A DNA stretch of 64,000 nt from Anaerolineae bacterium (lineage in GTDB: Bacteria; Chloroflexota; Anaerolineae; B4-G1; DUEL01). Shown piece by piece: positions 4,739 to 57,690 of the stretch (the first letter of the stretch is position 1; each line of letters opens with the position of its first letter). Under the pieces are notes generated by a model that saw only the letters and a list, made by a program, of their open reading frames with translations, ran no database searches and was not told the origin of the DNA. The stretch spans positions 246-64,245 of the forward strand of contig JASFBC010000018.1 of assembly GCA_036172315.1 (NCBI GenBank). The letters are read 5' to 3'. Position numbers and translations under genes: made by a program.

Positions 4739-5405
4739 AAGGATTCCTCAAAACAAGACGGGTTGAGTGGTCGCCGGTTTTGTCAATCGAGCGAGATCAT
4801 TCAGGGCCGACTTTGTGCGTTTGCATGCTCTCCGTTATCCCTCCCTCTCCTCCACTAGGCCTGTGGCCAGGGGAAAAGGAGAGATTGGAGGCAGGTGACC
4901 AATCCAATTATATCTCATTCCGACAAGCAGGCAATCATGCGTATTCACGGATTACATCTCTTTCCTCGCCAGCAGCGGGAGGATCATTCCTCATCACTAC
5001 CGTCACTACCCGTTTGTCAGGAAAGCCGATAGCAGGTATAATGTTGGCGAAAAAGTAACGATTCAGCCCGATGGAGGTCACCCTCCTGGTGCCAATTGGA
5101 AATCGGTCTCCCTGGACGCTTTGCGCCGGGCGTCAACACTCGGGCGAATTTTATTTTGGACGCAGATTCACGCAGATTCTCTCGGATTATCTCTGGAAAT
5201 CGTAATTGTTCAGCCCGATGGAGATCGCCCTCCCGCAGACCACAGACCGTAGACCACAGATGACGGTGGTCGGTGGTCCGTAGTCGGTGGTCTGTCGTCC
5301 ACCGTCTGTCGTCCATCCCGGAAGGACGGCGCACGCCATCCATTGGCCAGAGGCCCGGGGAAGACAAAGCGCCGAATAGTTACAAAATACCATAAGGAGG
5401 CACCC

Positions 5406-6162: not shown

Positions 6163-7842
6163 ATGGACATCCCGAACCTCCGCTGGTGGGGGTGGGGTAC
6201 CCTGGATCGTTCTTACCCCCTGGAGAACCGGCCGCGCTTCTGGCCTACCCTGCGGGCCTGGCTGGAACTGCCCGACGACCTGAGGGAACGCCCGCCGGTC
6301 CCCCTGGAGTCGCTCCAACTCCGACCGTCCCGCCTGGACGACCCGGTTCTGGCCTCTCTGTGCCGACTGGTCGGAGAAGAGGCGGTCCGGCTGGACCTGC
6401 GCACCCGCGTGGAGCATGCCTGCGGCAAGGCCTATCGGGACCTGGTACGCGTGCGGGCCGGCATCATCCCCAACCCCCCGGATGCCGTCGTCTACCCGGC
6501 CGACGAGGGACAGGTGGCGGCGGTGGTCGCCTGGGCCGCCGACCGGGACATCCTCATTATCCCCTTCGGCGGCGGGAGCACCGTCCTGGGCGCTGTGGAG
6601 CCGCCCCCTGACGACCGTCCCGCCATCAGCCTGGACCTGGCCCGCCTGGACCGGCTCATCTCCATAGACCCCGTCTCCCGGACCGCCCGCATCCAGGCCG
6701 GCGCGACCGGGCCGGAGGTGGAGGCCCAACTGAATGCCCACGGCTTCACCCTGGGCCATTTCCCCCAATCCTTTGAGTTCTCCACCCTCGGCGGCTGGAT
6801 CGCCACCCGGGGCGCCGGTCAGACTTCCACCGGCTACGGCAAAATAGAGCACATGACCCAGGCGGTCCAGGTGGTCACCCCGGTGGGCATCATTGAGACG
6901 CGCGATGTCCCCGCCGCCGCCACCGGCCCCAGCCTGTTGCACCTCCTGATTGGTTCGGAGGGGACCTGCGGGGTCATCACCCAGGCGACGATGCGAATCT
7001 CCCCCTGCCCCGAAGTCCAGGACTACCGGGGGTTCCTCTTCCACCGACTGGACGAGGCCGTCGCCGCGCTGCGTGACCTGATGCAGCAGGGCCCCTGCCC
7101 CACCATTGCCCGCCTCTCCGACCCCGAGGAGACAGCGGGTTTCGCCGCTATGGCCCATGCCCACTCCGGCCTGCGGGCGCTGGCGGACTGGGCCGCAGAC
7201 CGGTACCTGGCCTGGAGGGGCCACAGTTTGACCGGCGGGAGTTGTTTCCTGCTCTTGGGCTACGACGGCCGCCCGGAGGATGTTCGCCCCCGCTGGCGGC
7301 GGGCGACCGAAATCTGCCGGGACCATGGAGGCCTGCCCCTGGGCCGCCGCGTCGGCGAATCCTGGAAGCGGGAGCGGTTCGCCCATCCCTACCTGCGGGA
7401 TACCCTCTTAAGCGTCGGCGTCATGGTGGATACGCTGGAGACGGCCACCACCTGGTCCAACCTGCTTCACCTCTACGAGGCGATGACGGCGGCCATCCGG
7501 GCAGCCATCCGGGAGACTGGCGGCGGCCCCGGCTACGTGATGACCCATATCTCCCATAGTTATCCCTGGGGAGCCTCTCTGTATACCACTTTCCTGGGCC
7601 GGCAGGTGCCTGGTGCGGAGATTGAGCAGTGGTGGGCCGTGAAAGAAGCGGCGACGGAGGCAATTTTGGCCGCCGGAGGCACCCTCAGCCACCATCACGG
7701 CATCGGCCGCGACCATACCCGCTGGCTCCGGGAAGAGATCGGTCCGCTGGGGTTGAGGACTCTTCAGGCCCTCAAGGCCGCCCTGGACCCCACCGGCATT
7801 ATGAACCCGGGCGTCCTGCTGCCGACCCGGGCGATGCCGTAG
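6163..7842 (+). CDS. FAD-linked oxidase (FAD_binding_4 / alkyl-DHAP-synthase- or GlcD-like)
   Basis: FAD-binding PCMH-type region VVYPADEGQVAAVVAWAADRDILIIPFGGGSTVLG. The C-terminal FAD-oxidase domain contains HHHGIG. Confidence 0.7.
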   Translation: MDIPNLRWWGWGTLDRSYPLENRPRFWPTLRAWLELPDDLRERPPVPLESLQLRPSRLDDPVLASLCRLVGEEAVRLDLRTRVEHACGKAYRDLVRVRAGIIPNPPDAVVYPADEGQVAAVVAWAADRDILIIPFGGGSTVLGAVEPPPDDRPAISLDLARLDRLISIDPVSRTARIQAGATGPEVEAQLNAHGFTLGHFPQSFEFSTLGGWIATRGAGQTSTGYGKIEHMTQAVQVVTPVGIIETRDVPAAATGPSLLHLLIGSEGTCGVITQATMRISPCPEVQDYRGFLFHRLDEAVAALRDLMQQGPCPTIARLSDPEETAGFAAMAHAHSGLRALADWAADRYLAWRGHSLTGGSCFLLLGYDGRPEDVRPRWRRATEICRDHGGLPLGRRVGESWKRERFAHPYLRDTLLSVGVMVDTLETATTWSNLLHLYEAMTAAIRAAIRETGGGPGYVMTHISHSYPWGASLYTTFLGRQVPGAEIEQWWAVKEAATEAILAAGGTLSHHHGIGRDHTRWLREEIGPLGLRTLQALKAALDPTGIMNPGVLLPTRAMP

Positions 7843-7855
7843 ACGACGATCATAG

Positions 7856-7920
7856 CGTTTCGCAGGCTAACAGCCTGCGCTACAGGCTGACAGCCTGCGT
7901 TACAGGCCGCCAGGCTTGCA
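7856..7920. repeat. REP-like hairpin tandem array (unit CAGGCTAACAGCCTGCGCTA, ~3 copies)
   Basis: The 8-bp stem CAGGCT/AGCCTG with an AAC loop is repeated in tandem between the FAD-oxidase stop and glpD. Confidence 0.8.
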
Positions 7921-9592: not shown

Positions 9593-11110
9593 ATGAAACG
9601 CCATCACACCAACTGGGCCGCCCTCCAGGGCTGCGCGCTCACCGGATTCCTGCTCCTGTGGTTGATCGGAGCCGGACTGGTAGGCTACACCTTTATCGCG
9701 CTGGGACGGCAGCCCACCCTGACTCCGGTGCCGATGCCGACTCCCTCGCCTGATCCTTCCCCCACGCCGACGGCGACCCCTACCCCGACGGCGACGCCTA
9801 CCCGGACGCCGACCCCCAGTCCGACCCCCATCCCTTCTCCTACTCCAACACCGACCGCCACCCCAACCCCGCGCCCCACCCCTGTCTTCCGCGCGCCGCC
9901 GGGCACTATGGTGGTCCCGTCCCCTTTCCCCATGCCCACGCCCGACCCCAACGCGCCGCCCGATGCGGTCATCCCGACGCCCGTCAACCCCATCCCTGTC
10001 GCCGCCGACGCTGTTAACATTGTCGTCCTGGGCAGCGACAAGCGCCCCCACTGGACGGAGTGGCACACCGACGCCATCCACATCGTCTCCATCCAGCGGA
10101 ACCGGGCCGTTGTTTCGGTCATCTCCATCCCACGCGACCTATACGTCTACATTCCCGGCGACGGGATGAACCGGATCAATATGGCCGACTACCACGGCGA
10201 GGCCACCGGTTATCCTGGCGGTGGGTGGGCCAACCTGCGGGATACGCTCCTCTACAATCTGGGCATCCGCGCTGACTACTACGTCCGCACCGACTTTGAC
10301 GGTCTCATCGGCATCGTGGACGCGCTGGGCGGCATAGACGTCCCCGTCCCCTGCCGCCTGAGCGACCACTGGCCCTACCCCGATGCCAGCGGACAGTATC
10401 CCATCTTCACCCTGGAGCCAGGTGTCCACCATCTGGACGGTGAACAGGCCCTCTGGTATGCCCGCTCCCGGATGACCACCAGCGTCTTCTCCCGGGACCG
10501 CCGTCAACAGCAGGTTCTGCAAGCCATCTGGCACAGACTTCGGGACAGCGGCTGGCTGGCCCAGATTCCCACTCTCTGGGACCAGTTCCAGAGCATGTTT
10601 GTGACCAATCTGGACCTGCCTGCTGTCCTGGACCTGGCGCGGGTGGCGTTCTTCCTCCAGGAGCAGAACATCCGCTATTACAACATCGGCGCGCAGCACG
10701 TAACGCTATGGGTGACTCCCTGGGGCGGGAGCGTCTTCCTGCCCCGCTGGGAAGCGATAGGGCCAGTCCTGGCGGAGGCGATGGCGCCACCCTCCGAGGG
10801 TCGCCTGACCCGCACTTTTATGCCGGTGGAAGTCTGGAACGGGACGTCCAATCCGGACTGGGACCTGCTGGCGGTGGACCGGCTGGTTCGGGCGGGCTTC
10901 CCCGCTATCGTCGGCCAGCCGGACCGAAGGGACTATCCCCAAACAATGCTCATCCTCTTCCGGGAACACGCGAAGGGGACAGGCGTGGAGGACCTGAAGC
11001 GGATGTTCGGGATTCCCGAAGAGCGGGTGTCCTATAAACCGAACTGGGGCACCGCCTACGGCTTCCGCCTCATCATCGGCGCCGATTATCAGACCTGCTA
11101 TGAGAGATAG
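9593..11110 (+). CDS. LytR-CpsA-Psr (LCP) family cell-envelope protein with Pro/Thr-rich linker
   Basis: N-terminal TM helix. Linker [34 protein letters not shown] core [54 protein letters not shown]. LytR_C-like C-terminus. Confidence 0.8.
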
Positions 11111-11202
11111 ACGACGGACGACAGACCACGGACGACAGACCGCAGACGACAGATGGCAGGTGAGAGACCACGGGCCCCGATCGGTGGTCGGTGGCCCGTG
11201 GT

Positions 11203-11996
11203 CGGTGGTGATCGTGAAGGGCGGCGGCGACCTGGGCACGGGCGTCGCCTGGCGGCTCCACCGCTGCGGCTTTCGCGTCCTGGTCACCGAGGTCGCCCAA
11301 CCCACTGTGATCCGCCGCGCTGTGGCTTTTGCCTCGGCGGTCTATGAGGGAAGCATCACGGTGGATGGCGTTACGGCGCGGCGGGTGGAGGACGAGGCCG
11401 GCATCCGGTCCGCCTGGGCCGCCGGTGAGGTCCCCGTCGTCGTGGACCCGCAGGCGGAATGGGTGGGGCGCCTGCGTCCGCTGGCAGTGGTAGACGCCAT
11501 TATGGCCAAGCGGAACACCGGCACCCGCATCACCGACGCGCCCGTTGTGGTGGCGCTGGGGCCGGGATTTGTCGCCGGTGTGGATTGCCATGCGGTCGTG
11601 GAGACCAACCGGGGCCACAACCTGGGGCGGGTCATCCTGGAGGGGGGTGCCGAACCGGATACGGGTGTCCCCGGCGAAGTGGGCGGCGAGAGCGCGCGGC
11701 GGGTCCTGCGCGCCCCGGCCGATGGCGTCTTCCGGGGGGTCCGCGCCATCGGCGAGCGGGTACGGGCCGGAGAAGTGGTGGCCTATGTGGACGACGTCCC
11801 CGTCCTTTCCCAACTGGACGGCGTCTTGCGGGGCCTGCTCCACGATGGGTTGACTGTCCGCGCGGGGATGAAAGTGGGGGATGTGGACCCTCGGGCCGTC
11901 GTGGCCCACTGTTTCACCATCTCAGATAAGGCGCTGGCAGTTGGCGGAGGGGTGCTGGAAGCGATTCTCTTTCTGGCCTGTCGCGGGGGCCGGTAG
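11203..11996 (+). CDS. YqeB-family protein (selenium-dependent molybdenum hydroxylase system accessory family, TIGR03309-like)
   Basis: VVIVKGGGDLGTGVAWRLHRCGFRVLVTEVAQPTVIRRAVAFASAVYEG resembles the YqeB-family N-terminus. The upstream part of the track ORF (11100-) is encoded by the GACGAC/GACCAC repeat and is probably not coding. The start is tentatively placed at a GTG. Confidence 0.5.
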
Positions 11997-12725: not shown

Positions 12726-14782
12726 GCCGTCGGATACGGCAATCGGGGGTGAAATACACCTTTCAGCGTATAGACGAAGGATCGTTGTGCCTCGTTCAGT
12801 TCCCTCAGGGTGATCGGACAGTCATCTAACTGCTCCGTCTCGAGCACTTCCCTGAATATCTCCCCAACGACCCGGGCCAGGTCCTCCGGTGTGGTGGGGC
12901 GGCGGGACCGGACAGCGGCCTCGCACCGGTCCGCCAGCATCACCAGCGCCGTCTCCCGACTCCGGGGCCGGGGGCCCCGATGGCGAAAATTCGCCTCGTT
13001 GATCCGCGACGGGTCACCGGCCTGCTCCACCGCCCGCTCGTACTGGAATCCGGCGCGGCTGGTCCCGTGGTGCTCACTGATGAAGGCCCGGACCCAGGAG
13101 GGGAGGCGGTAGCGACGAGCCAATTCCAATCCGTCCTGGACATGCCCGATGATGACCTGCGCGCTGGTGTGAGGGTCCAACTGGTCGTGAGGATTCGTGC
13201 CCTCCAACTGATTCTCGGCGAAGAAGTACGGGCGGGCGATTTTGCCGATGTCGTGGTAGTACGCCCCCACCCGCACCAGCAGGGGGTTGAGGCCCATCCG
13301 TTCGGCCGCCTGTTCGGCCATGCTGGCCACCATCAGGGAGTGGTGATACGTGCCGGGCGCCTCCCGCAGCAGCCGCTGCAGGAGCGGATGGTCGGGACGG
13401 CTCAACTCCAGCAGCCGGAAGGTGGTGGGCAGGTCAAAGAGAGGGCCGAGGAGGAAAAGGCCGGCCAGAGCCAGGCTGGCGGAAATCACCCCGTTGGTCA
13501 CGGCTTCTATCAACGCCAGGCCAAAAGAGAGGGGGTCCGGGTGGGTGGCAAGGAGGGCAAAGGCCACCAGGACTCCCACCGTTGCCAGTGCCGAGACGAA
13601 GCCAGCACGGAACAGAACAGTCGGGCGGTCGGTGCGACGGACCGCGAGGGTAGCCGCGATGCCCCCAACCGTCGCGTAGATGGCCAGTTCCAGGGACTGG
13701 TCCCCGATCAGGCCCATAGCGGCCCCGACCAGTAGGCTGGCGACCAGGCCGGTGGGCACGCCCAGCGTGGCGGTTGCCAGCATCCCCAGCGCTGGCGCCG
13801 GGAACAAATAGCGCAACACCGTCCGGTCGGGGACCATCAGGCGGACCAGCGCCAGGAAGAGGGCGATCAGCAGCGTCAGCAGAAGCGATTTCCTCCCCTC
13901 CTGTAGCACATCCGGCTGGAAGCGGGCCAGAATGACCCCCATCAGCAGTACGCCCAGTACAGATAGAATGCCGTTGGCAGCGACCTCCGTCCAGCGGGTA
14001 CGGGGTTGTTGCAGGCCCAGTTCCTGCAACGCTTCCAGGTCCAGCGCGCTGACCCGCTGCCCCTCCCGTACGATAACCTCATTGGCCTCAAAGGTGCGGA
14101 TGACCGGTGGGGCTGCCTCCCGCGCAGCCTGGCGGGCCTGTCGGGTGGCCTCTTCGTCGTAGAAGGAATTGGGGGCAATGAGCCGCTGGGCCAGGGCGGT
14201 GGTGACGGCCGCCTCATCGCTGGAGAGGTCTAATCCGACCAGCGCGGCAGCCTGCTGTCGCGCCTGGTCTATGCTGTCCTCTCGCACTCCCCGGCGCATC
14301 GTCTCCGCGACGACATTAAGGACTTCCAGTTGCACCCGGTTCCAGGATTCGTCGGAGAGAGTGGGGAGTATGTCGGCGACTACAGGGGGCAGGTCTTTCA
14401 ATTCCGGCACGGCGACCGTCCAGGCCCGGCGCTGAGCAGGGTGGGCGTAAGGGTCCGCACGGACGGCGCTCAGATAATCCAGTGCCTGGCGCGCCCGCTC
14501 CAGTTGCTGACGGGCCAGGTTGGGGTCCGGGGCCGTATAGACAGGAGGTACAGCCTTTTCTGCCTGCTGCTGTTGTTCGGCGGTCCGGATGGCGCTCTCA
14601 TAGGTAATGCGGCGCGGCGAGCGGATGTCCCGGGGGGCCACATCCCCCTCTTCCAGGACCACGCGGCCGGAGGGGAGCAGGGGGAAAGAGAGCAGGAACG
14701 TGCTGACCAATACCAATAACAGCGCCAGAAGAGCCAGCCGTCCCCAGAGCCACCATTTCCGTCCGATCGGGTTTGCTCTCAT
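12722..14782 (-). CDS. 7TM-receptor with intracellular HD/HDIG phosphohydrolase domain (PgpH-like c-di-AMP phosphodiesterase family)
   Basis: N-terminal extracellular region and 7 TM helices. HDIG domain HHSLMVASMAEQAAERMGLNPLLVRVGAYYHDIGKIARPYFFAENQ. Confidence 0.8.
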   Translation of the reverse strand: MRANPIGRKWWLWGRLALLALLLVLVSTFLLSFPLLPSGRVVLEEGDVAPRDIRSPRRITYESAIRTAEQQQQAEKAVPPVYTAPDPNLARQQLERARQALDYLSAVRADPYAHPAQRRAWTVAVPELKDLPPVVADILPTLSDESWNRVQLEVLNVVAETMRRGVREDSIDQARQQAAALVGLDLSSDEAAVTTALAQRLIAPNSFYDEEATRQARQAAREAAPPVIRTFEANEVIVREGQRVSALDLEALQELGLQQPRTRWTEVAANGILSVLGVLLMGVILARFQPDVLQEGRKSLLLTLLIALFLALVRLMVPDRTVLRYLFPAPALGMLATATLGVPTGLVASLLVGAAMGLIGDQSLELAIYATVGGIAATLAVRRTDRPTVLFRAGFVSALATVGVLVAFALLATHPDPLSFGLALIEAVTNGVISASLALAGLFLLGPLFDLPTTFRLLELSRPDHPLLQRLLREAPGTYHHSLMVASMAEQAAERMGLNPLLVRVGAYYHDIGKIARPYFFAENQLEGTNPHDQLDPHTSAQVIIGHVQDGLELARRYRLPSWVRAFISEHHGTSRAGFQYERAVEQAGDPSRINEANFRHRGPRPRSRETALVMLADRCEAAVRSRRPTTPEDLARVVGEIFREVLETEQLDDCPITLRELNEAQRSFVYTLKGVFHPRLPYPTA

Positions 14783-17540: not shown

Positions 17541-17664
17541 TTAGTCCTCCTGGGTTCAAGAAATTTCATCGGGAATAGGACGCGGAGAAACACGGGTTTT
17601 TTATTAAAGGCAAGATTGCTTCCCCGTTGTTATTCCCGATAAAGTCTAAGGATCTATCGGTTCC

Positions 17665-19619
<1,955 letters not shown>

Positions 19620-24345: not shown

Positions 24346-24720
24346 AGATTGCAGATAGAGCCCCAGAGCCCGATCCCCATCTACGTCCAGATTGAGGAGC
24401 AGGTGCGGGCACTGATTGCGGCGGGGCAACTGCGCCCCGGGGACCAGTTGCCCACCATCCGCCAACTGGCCGTGGACCTGGGGGTGAACTACAACACCGT
24501 TGCCCGGGCCTACCTGGAACTGGAGCGCGCCGGGGTCATCACCACCCAGCGCGGGCGGGGGACCTTTGTCGCCGGAGTGCCGGACGAGGCCCGGCAAGCC
24601 CAACTGCGGGAGGAGAAACTGCGCGCCCTCCTGCGGGCGGCGATAGACGAGGCGCTCCGCCTGGGATATACTCAGGATGAAATCACGACCGCGTTCCGGC
24701 AGGAAGTCGGACGCGGATAA
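24343..24720 (+). CDS. GntR-family transcriptional regulator, YtrA-like (short C-terminus)
   Basis: IPIYVQIEEQVRALIAAGQLRPGDQLPTIRQLAVDLGVNYNTVARAYLELERAGVITTQRGRGTFV is a GntR wHTH. 125 aa. Confidence 0.85.
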   Translation: MRLQIEPQSPIPIYVQIEEQVRALIAAGQLRPGDQLPTIRQLAVDLGVNYNTVARAYLELERAGVITTQRGRGTFVAGVPDEARQAQLREEKLRALLRAAIDEALRLGYTQDEITTAFRQEVGRG

Positions 24721-24726
24721 CCGCAG

Positions 24727-25779
24727 ATGAACCCGGAGGAGTTCAAAGAAATTCTACTACCGACAAAGGAGGCAATGATGGTCGTAGTTCCGGCAACTCA
24801 ATCCCGGCGCGGGGAGCGCGCCCTGGTATCGGGGACGGTTCAGCGGAAAGAGACCGCCCTAAAGGGCTTCAGCGGACTGGCCCTGGGCATCTTCTTCATC
24901 CTGCTGGTTGTCTCCCTCATCCTGGCCGTCATCCTGGATGCCCTGGAAATCCCGGACGGCTGGATTGCCGCTGAGGTCGTCGTCCTCAACCTGGTGGGCC
25001 TCTACATCCTCTTCGCCTTGCGCGTCGCCAACCAGTGGGAGAAGGCCATCGTCCTGCGGCTGGGGCGCTTCCGGGGCCTCAAAGGCCCCGGCCCATTCTG
25101 GGTCGTCCCGGTCGTGGATACCATCCCGGCGATGGTGGACCATCGGGTGATGGTCACCCCCTTCACGGCGGAGCGGACGCTGACGAAGGATTCGGTGCCG
25201 GTGAACGTGGATGCCGTCCTCTTCTGGGTGGTCTGGGATGCGCAAAAGGCCGTGCTGGAGGTAGAGGACTACCAGACCGCCATCGCCTGGGCCGCCCAGA
25301 CGGCCTTGCGGGAAATCATCGGTCAGATGGACCTGGCCAGCATCCTGGTCGGACGGACGGTGATGGACGCCGAACTCCAGCGCATCATTGACGAGCGGAC
25401 GACGCCCTGGGGGATCACTGTCCAGTCGGTGGAAATCCGCGATATCGTCATCCCGGAGGCGCTGGAGGATGCGATGAGCCGTCAGGCGCAGGCGGAGCGG
25501 GAGCGGCAGGCGCGGGTCATCCTGGGGGAGAGCGAGAAGCAGATCGCCGCGTCTTTCGCCGAGGCCGCGCAGGCCTACCGGGATAACCCCACCGCGCTCC
25601 ACCTGCGGGCGATGAACATGCTCTTTGAGGGACTGAAGGAGAAAGGCGCGCTGGTCATCGTCCCCTCCAGCGCGGTGGAGACAATGAATCTGGGCGGGCT
25701 GATGGGAGTGGCCTCTTTGACGGGCACCCTGCAGACGCTCCTCGGAGGACAGCCCCCGGCCCCGCCCCAGGAGGGTTGA
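24727..25779 (+). CDS. SPFH/band-7 (stomatin-like) membrane protein
   Basis: N-terminal TM helices, then the SPFH core QWEKAIVLRLGRFRGLKGPGPFWVVPVVD...VNVDAVLFWVVWDAQKAVLEVEDY. Coiled-coil C-terminus. Confidence 0.85.
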   Translation: MNPEEFKEILLPTKEAMMVVVPATQSRRGERALVSGTVQRKETALKGFSGLALGIFFILLVVSLILAVILDALEIPDGWIAAEVVVLNLVGLYILFALRVANQWEKAIVLRLGRFRGLKGPGPFWVVPVVDTIPAMVDHRVMVTPFTAERTLTKDSVPVNVDAVLFWVVWDAQKAVLEVEDYQTAIAWAAQTALREIIGQMDLASILVGRTVMDAELQRIIDERTTPWGITVQSVEIRDIVIPEALEDAMSRQAQAERERQARVILGESEKQIAASFAEAAQAYRDNPTALHLRAMNMLFEGLKEKGALVIVPSSAVETMNLGGLMGVASLTGTLQTLLGGQPPAPPQEG

Positions 25780-39200: not shown

Positions 39201-39269
39201 GAGGTCGGCAGGACGTGGATTTCGCAGAGGTAGGGTGGAAGTACGGAAAAGACAAGGAGGATAGAGAAT

Positions 39270-40067
39270 CTGGAGGACCTGGAAGCGCTGGAGCAGGTTT
39301 TTCGGAAATATCCGGACATCCGGGCCGTCTACCTTTTCGGGTCGGCTGCGGAGGGACGGGAAGGGCCCGAGAGCGACCTGGACCTGGCGGTAGTCCCTCG
39401 CTCTCCGGCCGCTCGTGCCCATCGCCTGGACATCCTGGCCGACCTGGCCCGGGTGGGTTTCTGTAGAGTGGACCTGGTCTTTCTGGATACCGACGACATT
39501 GTCCTGAAGTATGAGGCCATTCGCCTCAATCGGACGGTGTATCAAACAGCGGATTTTGACCGGGGGGAGATGTATTCCCGCGTTGTGCGGCAGTACCTGG
39601 ACTTTTTGCCGTATCTGCGGGTACAGCGCCAGGAATACAAGCGGAGGATTGCCGATGATTCGGGTAGAGGTCATCGTAAACGGCTGGATAAACTGGGTGA
39701 ATACTTATCTATTCTGCGGAAACTGCGGGAGTATGAATGGGAGGAGTTCATTCGCGATCCCGAGCGCTATGGAAGTGCAGAACGCTTCCTCCAACTGGCG
39801 ATTGAGGCCGTTAACGACATCGGAAGCCACCTTATTGCCGCGCTGAGCCTAGGGACGGTCAACTGGTACAGCGACATCCCGGTGATTCTGGAGGAAAAAG
39901 AGTACATCCCTCCTGAACTCCGGGAGCGGTGGATTCGGATGATCGGTTTCCGGAACGTGCTGGTTCACGATTATCTGGAGGTAGACCGCCGGGTTGTCTA
40001 TGAGGTGCTCCAAAGAGGTCTAGAGGACTTGGAGGCACTGCGGAGTGTCTTTGCGCAATTTCTATGA
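39270..40067 (+). CDS. Fused minimal nucleotidyltransferase (MntA-like) / HEPN (HepT, DUF86-like) protein; start codon unresolved
   Basis: A single open frame runs from the stop at 39231 to the stop at 40067. It contains the NTase motif LFGSAAEGREGPESDLDLAV, then the HEPN Rx4HxY motif FRNVLVHDY. There is no ATG, GTG or TTG before the GTG at 39453. An AAGGAGG RBS lies at 39254-39260. The TGA overlaps the mnmA ATG (ATGA). Confidence 0.6.
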   Translation: MEDLEALEQVFRKYPDIRAVYLFGSAAEGREGPESDLDLAVVPRSPAARAHRLDILADLARVGFCRVDLVFLDTDDIVLKYEAIRLNRTVYQTADFDRGEMYSRVVRQYLDFLPYLRVQRQEYKRRIADDSGRGHRKRLDKLGEYLSILRKLREYEWEEFIRDPERYGSAERFLQLAIEAVNDIGSHLIAALSLGTVNWYSDIPVILEEKEYIPPELRERWIRMIGFRNVLVHDYLEVDRRVVYEVLQRGLEDLEALRSVFAQFL

Positions 40068-41152
40068 ACCGCCATGTTGTAGTTGCAATGAGCGGAGGGG
40101 TGGATAGCAGCGTCGCGGCCGTGCGGCTGGTGGAGCAGGGCTACCAGGTGACCGGGGTGATGCTGCGACTGTGGGCCGAGCCCGCCGCCGGTTGTCGGGA
40201 TAACCTCTGCTGCACGCCGGAGGCGGTGGCGCGCGCGCGGGACGTCGCCGCGCGGCTGGACATCCCGTTCCATGAGGTGGACATGCGGGAGCCCTTCCGC
40301 CGCGCCGTTGTGGAGACCTTCATCGCCGAATACGCTGCCGCCCGTACTCCCAACCCCTGCATCCCCTGCAATCGGGAAATCCGATTCGGGTTGCTGATGC
40401 AATGGGCCCTGGAGCACGGTGCCGACTATCTGGCGACCGGCCATTACGCCCGAGTCCGCCAGGTGGGGGACCGCTATCAACTGCTGCGGGGCCGGGACCG
40501 CACCAAAGACCAGTCCTACGTCCTGCACATCCTGACGCAGGCGCAATTAGCGCGCGTCCTTTTCCCCCTGGGCGACCTGACCAAGAAGGGGGTCCGGGAA
40601 CTGGCGCGGGCCCGGGGCCTCCCCATCGCCGACCAGCCGGAGAGCCAGGATATCTGCTTTCTGGCGGACGGGGACTACCGTCGGTTCGTCGCTGAACATA
40701 TGCCGGAGGCGGTCCGCCCTGGCCCTATTCTGGACAGGGCGGGCCGGGTACTGGGGGAGCACAGAGGGCTGATTCACTACACCATAGGCCAGCGGAAGGG
40801 CATCGGCGTGGCGGCTCCGCATCCCCTCTACGTCCTGGACATGGACCCTCAGCGCAATGCCCTGATCGTTGGACGGGCGGAGGAGTTGGGGCAATTGGAG
40901 TGCGTGGTGGCCCGGATGCACTACATTTCCGGCGAGGAGCCGCCGGGGCCTTTTGAGGCCACCGCCCAGATTCGCTACCGCCACAGGGAGGCCCCGGTGG
41001 TCGCCACGCCCCTGCCGGGAGGCCGCCTCCACGTCCGCTTCGCCGTCCCCCAGCGGGACATCACCCCGGGCCAGTACCTGGTCCTGTACGACGGCGAAGT
41101 CGTCCTGGGGGGCGGGGTAATTTGTGCGCCTTGGGAAACCGTGATACAATGA
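40064..41152 (+). CDS. mnmA: tRNA-specific 2-thiouridylase
   Basis: VVAMSGGVDSSVAAVRL PP-loop, CIPCNREIRFG, and a catalytic Cys region. Confidence 0.9.
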   Translation: MNRHVVVAMSGGVDSSVAAVRLVEQGYQVTGVMLRLWAEPAAGCRDNLCCTPEAVARARDVAARLDIPFHEVDMREPFRRAVVETFIAEYAAARTPNPCIPCNREIRFGLLMQWALEHGADYLATGHYARVRQVGDRYQLLRGRDRTKDQSYVLHILTQAQLARVLFPLGDLTKKGVRELARARGLPIADQPESQDICFLADGDYRRFVAEHMPEAVRPGPILDRAGRVLGEHRGLIHYTIGQRKGIGVAAPHPLYVLDMDPQRNALIVGRAEELGQLECVVARMHYISGEEPPGPFEATAQIRYRHREAPVVATPLPGGRLHVRFAVPQRDITPGQYLVLYDGEVVLGGGVICAPWETVIQ

Positions 41153-41290
41153 AGTCGTCTTGGGGGAGGGTGATTTGTGCGCCGGGGGAAAGCGTGATAC
41201 AATGTCTTTAAAGAAGCACATCCTGACCACCTACAGCGATGAGGAGACTTTTCTAATCGGGGAAGCGCCATCCTACTGAGAGGGAGAGCG

Positions 41291-45459: not shown

Positions 45460-45500
45460 TTCAACCGGAAAATTGTGGTTCAGTCGTCAGTGGTCGGTGG

Positions 45501-46444
45501 TCAGTAGTGGTCAATCGTCAGTGGTCGCCTCCAGAACGTCAGATCGGTCTGGAACTCCAGGCCCAGGGCGGATGCCAGTGCTCTGCCCTCCGGCTCCTCC
45601 ATGAGAAGGTCTATGTAGGCGAAGCCCAGGTGGGCCGCCAGGGCCTGCAGGGTCTCCACCGCCGGGCGCAGGTCGGCCTCCGGCGGCGCCCAGACGAAGC
45701 CGTCGGCCTGGGCGGGGGCCAGGGGTTGCGCCCGCAGGCCCAGCCAGACCCTTTCCCCGCCCGGCATGCGGGCCTGCCATCGCCCCCAGGGGAGGCGAGC
45801 CAGTTCCGGCAGCGGTCGGTCGGCGATCTCGTGCCACATATGGCGCCCGGTCTGGTAACGGCCCACCCGCAACGCCAGCCCTTGCCCGGCGGGATAGGGG
45901 GCATCATCGGCCTGGCGGAGGCCGGCGGGGAGGGGAACCTCCCGCGCTGAAGCCTGCCATTCCCGCAGCCACAGCCAGGGCTCAAACCCCACCCGGCGAT
46001 AGAACGGCTCCGCCTCCCGCTCCGGCTGGGTTGTGAGCGCCGCGCAGCCGCGCTCCTTCGCCAGCGCGACCCCCGCCTCCACCAGTGCCCGGCCGACTCC
46101 CCGTCCGAGATGGGCCGCATGGACGAAGAGCAGGGAAAGGTGAAGGACATGCCCGTACGGTGGCGGCTCGTTATCTTCCACGAACTCCGCCTCACCCACC
46201 CCTTCCTCTCCCCGCAGAGCGACCAGGGCCAGATGGCCCGCTCCCAGCCAGCGTCGGAGGTGGGCCGCGCAGGTCTCCGCGTCCATCCACGGGCCGCCGT
46301 GGAGCCAGTGCTCGTAGCGGGAGAGGGCGTCGTATGGCACGGCCTCCCCTTTCCCACCCCGCCGCCAGACCCGGATGTGGCTGCAATGGACAGCGGTGAT
46401 GGCCTCTGCGTCCTCGGGCGTCGCCGGACGGATGGTCAAACCGT

Positions 46445-46448
<4 letters not shown>
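45501..46448 (-). CDS. GNAT-family N-acetyltransferase with C-terminal extension
   Basis: GNAT motif A HVLHLSLLFVHAAHLGRGVGRALVEAGVALAKERG. 4-nt overlap with the ATPase gene. Confidence 0.6.
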
Positions 46449-47278
<830 letters not shown>

Positions 47279-47346
47279 CCACCTTCTTCTCCGAGATGGT
47301 AGCCGTGGAAGATTTCGGCCTGATTCTGTGGCCATCCACGGAAATA

Positions 47347-47495
47347 GGACGCAGATAAACGCAGATTCTCTCGGATTTATTTCGGACGCAGATAAACGCA
47401 GATTCTCTCGGATTTATTTAGGACGCAGATAAACGCAGATTCTCTCGGATTTATTTCGGACGCAGATAAACGCAGATTCTCTCGGATTATCTTTG
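47347..47495. repeat. 37-bp tandem repeat array (GGACGCAGATAAACGCAGATTCTCTCGGATTTATTTC x3.5) in the 5' leader of the ABC-exporter operon
   Basis: Near-identical units at 47347, 47384, 47421 and 47458 (partial). These are followed by a 32-bp repeat x2 at 47511-47575. Confidence 0.85.
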
Positions 47496-47922
47496 AAAAT
47501 CTTCACCATCGGCCAGCGAAGCCTGCGAAAATCTGCGTCCATCTGCGAGCGAAGCCTGCGAAAATCGGCGTCCCGTTTTATTTCGGACGTAGAGAAAGGC
47601 AGATTCTCGCGGATTTTTTAATATTAAGGGCAAGATTTCCCCGTCGCTATTCCCGATAAAGTCTCATATAGACAGCGCGGCCGTAGGGGGAGCCCCACGG
47701 CCGCGCGCAGGAGAAACAGAAAGGCCGTGGGCTCCCGCAGGCGCCCACGGCCTTAAGTATTATTTAATTAGCAGCCAGGTGGCGCACTGCGGCACGGCAT
47801 GCGGGTATCCCCACTACCCAGCGCAGGAAACCCGATCATCCATGGAATCGTCGCAATGCTCATCTGGCCTGCTCCTTGGTGATTTCGTTTTCTATTCTAC
47901 TCCACTCCGGAGAATTGTCAAA

Positions 47923-49494
47923 TCAAGATTCCCGATAATGGCAGCCCCGGCTCCGGCGGTTGTGATAGGCGGCCTCTGCGACCAGGAGCGCCGCCTGCAC
48001 CGCGTGGCGCAACCCCACCAGCCCGTCGCTCAGCCGGCTGGCCCGGTAGAAGTCGTCTATCTCTTCCTTCAGGTGGCGGAGGTCCCGGAGGGCGCGCGTG
48101 AGCCGCCGCTCGGAGCGGACCAGCCCCACATAGTTCCACATGGTGTACTGGATCGCCCGCAGGTCGCGCCAGATAAGGGCCGGGTCCGCCTCCTCCACCC
48201 CGGTCTCCTCCCAGGGCGGGACCTCCTCCGGGGAGACGATGGGGAGCGCACCCCGCGCCGCGATGGCCCGCGCGGCGCGCTGGCCCCAGACCAGTCCCTC
48301 CAGGAGCGACGTGGAGGCCAGCCGGTTGGCCCCGTGGACCCCCGTGCAGGCCACCTCTCCGACGGCGTAGAGGTTGCGAATCGTCGTCCGGCCCCACTCA
48401 TCGGTCCAGACCCCGCCGCAGAAGTAGTGGGCCGCCGGGACGACCGGGATGGGCTGGGCAGTGATATCCAGCCCCAGCGACCGGCAACGGTCATAGATGG
48501 TGGGGAAGCGCTCCCGAATCCGCTCCGGCGGGAGGATGGAAGCAATGTCCAGCAGGACATAGGGGTAGCCGTTGGCAACCATTTCGTGGTGGATGGCCCG
48601 CGCGACCACGTCCCGGGGCGCCAGGTCGCCCCACTCCGGGGCATATTTCTGCATAAAGGGACGACCATCCGGAGTGAGCAGCCGTCCTCCTTCCCCTCGT
48701 ACTGCCTCCGAGATGAGGAACCCCTCCGCGCCGGGGAGGGCCAGGACGGTGGGATGGAACTGGATGTACTCGGCGTTGATGACGCGCGCTCCGGCCCGAT
48801 AGGCCATGGCCAGGCCATCGCCCCGGGCCCCCTCCGGATTGGTGGTGTACCGGTAGATGCGACCCAGGCCGCCCGTCGCCAGTACCGTCGCCCCGGCCAG
48901 ATACCGGTGCACCCGCCCGGTGGCCCGGTCCAGCACATACGCGCCATGGCAGGTGATGGGGTCATAGACGGTGAGGGAGTCGCGGGCATGGTGGGGAAAG
49001 GTGATGAGGTCCACCGCTGTGGCGCCGGTCACCAGGCGGACGTTGGGATACCGGCGCAGCGCGGCGACCAGCGCCCCGATGATGGCCCGCCCCGTCGCAT
49101 CGCCGACGTGGAGGATGCGGGGGCGGGAATGGGCACCCTCCAGGCCGTAAGCCAGCCGCCCGTCGGGCTCCCGGTCAAAGGGGACGCCCAGTTCCCGAAT
49201 CAAAAACTGCTCCACCAACCGGGGCCCCTCTTCGGCCAGGATCCGGACAGCGGTGGGGAGGCTGAGGCCGGCCCCGGCGGCCAGGACGTCCTGGGCCAGG
49301 AGGTCGGGGCTATCGTCCTCCCCCAGCGTGACGATGCCGCCCTGAGCGTAGCGGGTGTTGCTCTCTTCGGGGTCCGCCGCGCGGGTAATAACGGTGACCT
49401 GCCGCTGGCGGTCGCGCGCCAGGACCAGCGCGGCGGTCGCTCCGGCAATCCCACAGCCGATGATCAGGACGTCACTCTCTACCAGTTCGGTCAT
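47923..49494 (-). CDS. nadB: L-aspartate oxidase
   Basis: DVLIIGCGIAGATAALVL...RPILHVGDATGRAII...the HGANRLASTSLLEGLVWG family signature. The ATG overlaps the vapC stop (ATGA). Confidence 0.9.
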   Translation of the reverse strand: MTELVESDVLIIGCGIAGATAALVLARDRQRQVTVITRAADPEESNTRYAQGGIVTLGEDDSPDLLAQDVLAAGAGLSLPTAVRILAEEGPRLVEQFLIRELGVPFDREPDGRLAYGLEGAHSRPRILHVGDATGRAIIGALVAALRRYPNVRLVTGATAVDLITFPHHARDSLTVYDPITCHGAYVLDRATGRVHRYLAGATVLATGGLGRIYRYTTNPEGARGDGLAMAYRAGARVINAEYIQFHPTVLALPGAEGFLISEAVRGEGGRLLTPDGRPFMQKYAPEWGDLAPRDVVARAIHHEMVANGYPYVLLDIASILPPERIRERFPTIYDRCRSLGLDITAQPIPVVPAAHYFCGGVWTDEWGRTTIRNLYAVGEVACTGVHGANRLASTSLLEGLVWGQRAARAIAARGALPIVSPEEVPPWEETGVEEADPALIWRDLRAIQYTMWNYVGLVRSERRLTRALRDLRHLKEEIDDFYRASRLSDGLVGLRHAVQAALLVAEAAYHNRRSRGCHYRES

Positions 49495-57613: not shown

Positions 57614-57690
57614 GCGCAGGCTGCTACGCAGGCTAACAGCCTGCGCTACAGGCTAACAGCCTGCGCTACAGGCTAACAGCCTGCGCTACG
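57614..57690. repeat. REP-like hairpin tandem array (3.5 copies of CAGGCTAACAGCCTGCGCTA) flanked by direct repeat ATTTGTCCAGAGTTC
   Basis: Exact 20-bp tandem units at 57629, 57649 and 57669. Flanking ATTTGTCCAGAGTTC lies at about 57594 and about 57697. Confidence 0.85.

Follow-up and report, generated by a model that had tools for sequence, protein, structure and literature searches.

A MITE/BOX-like interspersed repeat with an amplified internal module as the probable source of tandem arrays upstream of an ABC exporter operon in a Thermoflexales (Chloroflexota) genome

The BOX elements of Streptococcus pneumoniae are composites of a boxA end, a variable tandem array of boxB units and a boxC end; their ends are paired, they are co-transcribed, and their length varies with the size of the array, which is most variable where it is long (PMC3049150). 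We describe here an element of comparable layout from an Anaerolineae bacterium of the Thermoflexales, found within a stretch of 64,000 nucleotides (contig JASFBC010000018.1 of assembly GCA_036172315.1, positions 246 to 64,245; hereafter the window), where one copy lies upstream of an operon for an ABC-2-type exporter (the ABC copy) and another upstream of glmM (the glmM copy). As in BOX, two different end modules, partly inverted repeats of each other, enclose an internal module that may be absent, single or tandemly amplified, with lengths from under 100 to several hundred bp: one core was found in the glmM copy and in a copy from a related genome (L006, GCA_014360895.1), and five in the ABC copy. 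The element is likewise intergenic, is predicted to fold with paired ends, and is probably co-transcribed with its neighbours. The likeness is one of architecture only; no sequence relationship is apparent, the host phylum differs, and boxB is about 45 bp, whereas the internal unit here is 37 bp and is accompanied by a second module of 33 bp.

MITEs (miniature inverted-repeat transposable elements, e.g., Correia elements, RUP and Nezha) resemble the element in being small, non-coding and AT-rich relative to the host, in carrying terminal inverted repeats, in their strongly base-paired predicted structure, and in being present or absent at otherwise conserved sites; they differ in that the inverted repeats here are short, neither a target-site duplication nor a cognate transposase was identified, and an amplified internal tandem module is not MITE-typical. 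Like the BIMEs of enterobacteria and the NIMEs of Neisseria, the element consists of short modules in varying order and number in intergenic DNA, and a solo unit at 5150 clusters with 38-nt repeats and heptamer arrays; unlike them it has no REP-like palindromic unit, and no evidence was obtained here for binding of gyrase, IHF or similar proteins. With respect to REP/REPIN sequences, its ends are not palindromic REP-like units. A full-text literature search returned nothing relevant on repeats in Thermoflexales. We consider the probable explanation of these sequences to be an interspersed repeat of the MITE/BOX-like kind, specific to this lineage and with its internal module amplified; the repeat family is previously undescribed, and the kind of element is already known.

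As judged from alignment of the copies, the 37-bp units, the 33-bp units and a motif of about 50 nt are modules of one small non-coding repeat element bounded by inverted repeats, a connection that was missed in the original prediction, where they were reported separately as an array, a second array and a motif shared with the region upstream of glmM. The layout is a distal end beginning ACTTTATCGGGAATA, a core holding ATCTGCGT twice (single or amplified), and a proximal end closing in GCGTCCTATTYCCG, which is an inverted repeat of the distal end. A basic copy of about 90 bp, read toward the downstream gene, comprises the distal end ACTTTATCGGRAATA, an AT-rich stretch, a phased (A)TCYGCG core and the proximal end GCGTCCTATTYCCG. 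The long form, i.e., the ABC copy, spans about 326 bp (47339 to 47664, minus strand; both ends were located), and runs 5' to 3' on the minus strand through the distal end, the ~50-nt motif, a degenerate unit, the 33-bp units, four 37-bp units and the proximal end. The ~50-nt motif (47613 to 47664, minus strand) constitutes the distal end module, within which lies the terminal inverted repeat TTATCGGGAATA; the partner of that repeat at the proximal end, GCGTCCTATTTCCG (47339 to 47352, minus strand), precedes the ABC start codon by 60 nt, and the same end recurs at 17570 to 17583 and in L006. The inverted repeat of the ABC copy contains one G-T position.

The 37-bp array occupies 47347 to 47488 on the minus strand (Tandem Repeats Finder: period 37, 3.8 copies, 98% matches, score 277), and bears out the tandem repeats first proposed for this site. 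Its 31-nt core, GGACGCAGATAAACGCAGATTCTCTCGGATT, was present in the window in four exact copies (starts at 47347, 47384, 47421 and 47458), with an additional copy at 5158 containing 2 mismatches, where none was expected from shuffled sequences. On the minus strand ATCTGCGT is found two times in each 37-bp unit, at a spacing of 10 nt, so that the internal duplication noted originally is also real; 11 of the 13 occurrences of this octamer in the window were within element copies, and the remaining two were in coding DNA. The unit includes a TAA on each strand, in frame every 111 nt. The latest event in the array was probably the duplication of a 74-bp two-unit block, because the 70-nt blocks at 47345 to 47414 and 47419 to 47488 are 100% identical. 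The second array was also present (47495 to 47573, minus strand; 2.4 copies, 87% matches by the same program), and its period is 33 bp, not the 32 bp assigned before. The 33-bp unit holds GGACGCAGAT the other way round from the 37-bp units, and because of this inversion the two arrays can pair with one another; the 33-bp unit had no other occurrence in the ~300 kb searched. A fifth, degenerate 37-bp unit that had been overlooked (47577 to 47619, minus strand; 88% identity to the reference copy) is the counterpart of the one core in the short form.

The short form, which has one core, measures 87 bp (17561 to 17647, minus strand) and lies 20 nt upstream of the GTG start of glmM (17540). It can be written as ACTTTATCGGGAATA, 49 nt, and GTCCTATTCCCGATGAAA; its inverted repeat, ATCGGGAATA/TATTCCCGAT, is perfect over 10 bp (17568 to 17577 and 17631 to 17640) and matches at about 13 of 17 positions when extended. 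The motif claimed to be common to the ABC and glmM upstream regions proved genuine, since the 17-mer TATTCCCGATAAAGTCT is exact at 47648 to 47664 and 17631 to 17647 (0.03 expected by chance), and gapped alignment of the two copies extended the similarity over about 90 nt; one 28-nt stretch was 93% identical. In this alignment the single core of the glmM copy (ending TTTCTCCGCGTCC) was represented five times in the ABC copy, with two 33-bp units inserted after the first core. The solitary 37-bp unit reported elsewhere in the window was confirmed at 5150 to 5201 (minus strand), where it is without end modules and matches the last array unit together with its junction (52 nt, 90%). A CBS-domain gene has this unit in its plus-strand leader, downstream of a plus-strand promoter at 5014 to 5042, and the unit is thus in the opposite orientation to the transcript.

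We compared these sites with those of relatives within the Thermoflexales (76 to 94% identical in the GlmM and ABC ATPase proteins), using five glmM loci (L006, L008, L009, L108, L109) and seven ABC loci; L009 and L013 both derive from GCA_017880035.1. The element was absent upstream of the ABC operon at the seven relatives' loci (L013, L014-L018, L020, L022, L023) and upstream of glmM in 5 of 5 relatives. For L023 the flanks GCTGTCTAT and CGGCTACCATC aligned with the window across a gap of about 350 nt, and flanking sequence was also conserved in L013. The order of a nadB-like gene followed by the ABC operon was found in relatives, and the upstream gene differed in L022 and L023; the conserved leader described below was kept regardless. 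L108 retained both the epimerase-to-glmM order and the TTGAACCCAGGAGG flank, with a 73-nt spacer that contains no element, and the sequence upstream of glmM in L006, L008 and L109 was unrelated to that of the window. From its absence in relatives where synteny and flanks were kept, we therefore take the element to be a lineage-specific insertion at both sites. Other sequences occupied these sites in some relatives: L014 and L018 carried a different insert at the ABC site, a perfect 43-nt palindrome, and the epimerase-glmM spacer of L009 (9838 to 9925) held about 7 copies of a 14-nt unit, GAAACGTGAGAAGT, followed by a partly inverted copy. Lineages differ in the repeats that have colonised this spacer.

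The composition of the element sets it off from its surroundings, with a GC content of 41 to 46% (45.6% for the ABC copy) vs 64.7% for the window, and the copies contained only short incidental open reading frames (ORFs). The short form was predicted to fold as RNA with a 13-bp terminal stem (z = -2.4), and the long form with its ends paired (z = -2.7). At the gathering threshold no Rfam family was matched across the whole window, and searching by E-value gave weak noise only, far below threshold. No sigma-70-like promoter was found inside the element copies, either by scanner or by eye, and no intrinsic terminator (a hairpin with a U-run) was found there. A CRISPR array was considered for the tandem units and rejected, as the units are directly head-to-tail with no spacers.

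A full short form was identified in GCA_014360895.1 (L006, 15113 to 15205; nhmmer E = 2e-25), 38 nt upstream of a parA/CbiA-like gene, and a partial copy was found at the annotated yfhO start in GCA_017880035.1 (L013, 2257 to 2293; 92% over 37 nt, E = 2e-8). Both contained the phased triplet TCTGCGC / TCCGCGT / TCCGCGT. The ends of the L006 copy were compensated (CGGAAATAG/CTATTTCCG): its inverted-repeat arms were CGGAAATA/TATTTCCG, where the glmM copy has CGGGAATA/TATTCCCG, both arms having changed together. Comparison of the three full copies showed one two-sided change in the terminal stem, from G-C to A-T, a change to be expected no less of transposon ends. The copies varied in the stretch between their ends, at 49, 63 and about 300 nt. 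A parS or centromere role, considered for the L006 copy which precedes a parA-like gene, was dropped, as the other copies precede unrelated genes. Two independent short-read assemblies were broken inside copies (L001 starts within a 37-bp unit and L007 ends within an L006-type element). Such breaks are the behaviour of multi-copy repeats, and here they hint at multiple copies.

Wider searches were made with several probes. The family profile gave no additional convincing copies in ~300 kb of Thermoflexales DNA. A scan of a genome collection (the source genome not included) for ACGCAGATTCTCTCGGATT gave 4 single chance matches in unrelated phyla, and the repeat unit was not found in a viral scan; a permissive end pattern in the viral scan gave 84 single matches that were discarded, as scoring with the family profile recovered only the pattern itself. 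Weak unit-like matches (GGACGCGGATAACCGCAGATGAAC and similar; E 0.002 to 0.9) were seen at 24702 to 24737 of the window, at 7059 to 7101 of L109 and at 14385 to 14421 of L022, at gene junctions or in upstream regions. These could represent old relics of the element or could be due to chance, and we treat them as unproven.

The course of events that would account for these data is as follows. Copies would have inserted into intergenic DNA of this lineage, one landing between the epimerase-like gene and glmM, and another, in the ABC operon, between an attenuator-like conserved leader and the ribosome-binding site. The core of the ABC copy may then have been amplified to five copies by slippage or unequal recombination, the 74-bp two-unit duplication probably being the last step, and the second, partly inverted 33-bp module would also have been duplicated there. 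Transcription of both copies together with the downstream genes, as 5' untranslated or intercistronic RNA, is probable, because no promoter or terminator was detected inside the element and because L023 and L013 have no room for a separate ABC promoter between hairpin 2 and the start codon. In the ABC transcript the paired ends and the complementary arrays would then form a long imperfect hairpin within the 5' untranslated region, which, as a side effect, could change the stability or the translation of the mRNA. Direct observations are the architecture, the lack of the element at orthologous sites and the related copies elsewhere; the insertion history is what we infer from them.

Several points weigh against this account. 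Only three loci were found in the 64-kb window, the ~240 kb from relatives gave one full copy and a partial one, and two metagenome scans gave nothing real (the first, with a 31-nt unit, had no match; the second, with the two ends separated by a gap of 40 to 70 nt, had 3 AT-rich chance matches with no family resemblance). A target-site duplication was not definable by comparison with L023, L013 and L108, where the relatives' spacers are too diverged beside the insertion points. In the window and the fetched loci, a sample so small that the negative is weak, no transposase with such ends was found; the only insertion sequence seen, an rve-family one in L006, was examined as a partner and rejected, as its ends are unrelated. 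Co-transcription is a deduction. Finally, the four informative copies are all 20 to 60 nt upstream of a start codon and in the same orientation, which could hint at function; four sense-oriented copies are too few to tell insertion preference or selection from function.

The arrays could instead have arisen by slippage in place as local, non-mobile repeats, the loci being alike through gene conversion or chance reuse of AT-rich spacers. The near identity within the arrays does imply recent local amplification, and unrelated lineage-specific intergenic repeats are common here (the 14-nt array of L009, and GC-rich palindromes in L014, L023 and L109); however, unlinked loci 30 kb apart hold copies bounded by identical end modules that are inverted to each other, and a copy at a different locus in another genome is bounded by those same ends, which is hard to explain without dispersal. 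We judge purely local origin to be unlikely.

An equally doubtful reading is that the ATCTGCGT direct repeats are operators for a transcription factor with glmM, the ABC operon and further genes under its joint control; the tandem array would then give cooperative binding at multiple sites. A spacing of 10 nt corresponds to one turn of the helix, and winged-helix response regulators have direct-repeat sites spaced in this way. The octamers keep this spacing regularly within each unit, the L006 and L013 copies have a similar phased triplet, and the position of the four copies, before start codons and in one orientation, would suit such a role. Against it, the octamer is essentially confined to element copies (the 11 of 13 noted above), with no free-standing sites in other promoter regions of the window; the sites are always accompanied by end modules, and in no relative are they kept upstream of the orthologous genes. 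At the ABC locus, moreover, the only promoter detected and two hairpins are upstream of these sites, and operators are not usually so placed. No positive evidence was obtained for the cluster of binding sites that the original prediction had listed as an option.

It is conceivable, though we hold it improbable, that the element is a mobile regulatory cassette whose phased ATCTGCGT repeats, as DNA or RNA, would bind a hypothetical protein. If so, copies landing 20 to 60 nt before a start codon in the sense orientation would put the downstream gene under the control of that protein, and expression of the ABC exporter would be tuned, downstream of its attenuator, by how many 37-bp units are present, which would make the array a variable-number "rheostat" built into several unrelated operons.

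The least probable reading, a very remote one and another of those raised originally, is that the ~50-nt motif and core form a shared cis-regulatory RNA, either a riboswitch-like leader or a small-RNA target, for glmM and the ABC operon: the copies do lie in sense orientation within probable 5' untranslated or intercistronic regions, are predicted to fold more stably than shuffled sequences, and retain a paired terminal stem through one two-sided change between the window and L006 copies, but the element is missing from every orthologous glmM and ABC leader examined while the true leader beside it hardly varies, no Rfam family was matched, the interior differs greatly in length (49, 63 and ~300 nt), the solo unit is antisense to its transcript, and the single two-sided change is equally expected of transposon ends recognised by one protein. 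The remaining option, a MITE-like element, was the best supported of those offered at the outset, by the inverted-repeat ends, the AT-richness, the internal amplification, the absence from relatives' sites and the related copies elsewhere.

Once the repeats are read as an insertion between a conserved leader and the ribosome-binding site, as the alignments with relatives indicate, the leader itself becomes visible, and it is more unusual than the repeats. The original prediction had spoken of a long structured leader; this title was misplaced, since the conserved and strongly structured leader occupies 47675 to 47921 (minus strand), mostly outside the region it was assigned to, and the repeat element starts about 10 nt downstream of its last hairpin. 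The leader consists of a promoter, a 31-codon ORF and two GC hairpins, and was present in all seven relatives despite the absence of the element there. Its strong sigma-70-like promoter, TTGACA-16-TAGAAT (47894 to 47921, minus strand), is conserved in seven genomes and was the only such site found in 47000 to 48100. The ORF (MSIATIPWMIGFPALGSGDTRMPCRSAPPGC; 47768 to 47863, minus strand) is preceded by an AAGGAG ribosome-binding site at 47872 to 47877. Hairpin 1 (AAGGCCGTGGGC...GCCCACGGCCTT; 47709 to 47754, minus strand) is followed by a U-rich tail, is terminator-like, and is near-invariant in seven genomes; hairpin 2 (GCGCGGCCGTGGGG...CCCCTACGGCCGCGC; 47675 to 47706, minus strand) has arms that are interchangeable with those of hairpin 1. 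From hairpin 2 to the ABC start codon there are 49 nt in L023 and about 70 nt in L013.

The small ORF has 30 to 32 codons in all seven genomes. It diverges in the N-terminal part, and conservation both as protein and as DNA (CGCAGTGCGCC) is seen in the last codons, RSAP(P)G (RSAPPG in the window). At its end the ORF has the sequence CCGCAG(U)GCGCC, complementary both to codons 2 to 4 and to the top of hairpin 1. When compared with shuffled sequences the leader fold gave z = -5.6. No Rfam family matched the ABC leader, and a single-sequence search of a protein library returned one 31-aa representative of the leader peptide. We propose, as a hypothesis only, that the ABC leader is a candidate translation-coupled attenuator. 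Ribosome-mediated attenuation through a leader peptide was described for bmrB-bmrCD of Bacillus subtilis (PMC4191407), where a short ORF and then a terminator-like hairpin likewise lie upstream of an ABC exporter operon, and alternative pairings are likewise possible between the ORF end and the hairpins. The two systems have no apparent sequence relationship; the exporter here is of the ABC-2 type with a GNAT gene, and the mechanism here is entirely deduced.

The gene downstream of the element is that of the ABC-2-type ATPase (46445 to 47278, minus strand; its start codon at 47278 had been correctly placed), the first of an operon that continues with a GNAT acetyltransferase and an ABC-2 permease. 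The gene upstream of the ABC leader resembles L-aspartate oxidase (nadB-like). Its last codons, TTATCGGGAATC (47927 to 47938), match the terminal repeat TTATCGGGAATA at 11 of 12 positions, 260 nt from the element; this match is probably a coincidence, because the stretch is conserved as coding sequence in relatives. The glmM gene is preceded by a GDP-mannose-dehydratase-like (epimerase-like) gene with its stop at 17665, the short element being held within the 124-nt spacer between them, where neither a promoter nor a terminator was detected. The dehydratase-like gene encodes 332 aa in the window vs about 680 aa in L009 (7799 to 9841) and L108 (1 to 2052); the longer versions show a faint LAGLIDADG match between two Epimerase halves, and probably reflect an intein.

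The surroundings of the solo unit are a cluster of different repeat types (5014 to 5233). The strong plus-strand promoter there (TTGTCA-17-TATAAT, 5014 to 5042) precedes a leader of about 350 nt for the CBS/ACT-domain gene, in which two 38-nt direct repeats (5049 to 5086 and 5196 to 5233; 82% identical) flank the solo 37-bp unit. Heptamer arrays of the CAGACCA, CGGTGGT and AGACGAC types were found in intergenic DNA at 5233 to 5312, 11109 to 11209 and 45475 to 45526, and the stretches 5266 to 5310 and 11106 to 11150 are 80% mutually complementary. Another interspersed repeat family is represented by a 20-bp unit, CAGGCTAACAGCCTGCGCTA, that forms a small hairpin (CAGGCT/AGCCTG) and occurs in arrays at 7863 to 7907 and 57629 to 57689, 50 kb apart, one with 2.2 copies at 92% matches and the other with 3.0 copies at 100%. 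At 41096 to 41204, also intergenic, a 53-bp unit is present twice (85% matches), both copies ending in GTGATACAATG. GC-rich perfect palindromes of the form GGCGGC...GCCGCC (e.g., TTGTGGTGGCGGCGAAGCCGCCACCACAA) recur in intergenic DNA of several Thermoflexales relatives (L014, 9836 to 9880; L023, 9513 to 9555; L109, 1311 to 1352; L006, 1112 to 1140 and 15459 to 15490); as a family they look REP-like, and they are not present at the ABC site of the window. A nucleotidyltransferase/HEPN-type gene pair, toxin-antitoxin-like, lies at 39260 to 40050 with a GC content below its surroundings, and a similar pair was seen in L018 and L022.

The element represents an undescribed family of small interspersed repeats in the Thermoflexales, an uncultured and poorly studied lineage of the Chloroflexota. 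Such elements break short-read assemblies, as in the two cases seen here, and can pass for shared regulatory motifs; their arrays are candidate variable-number markers. Setting the insertion aside reveals the leader of the ABC operon, which offers a testable candidate for attenuation.

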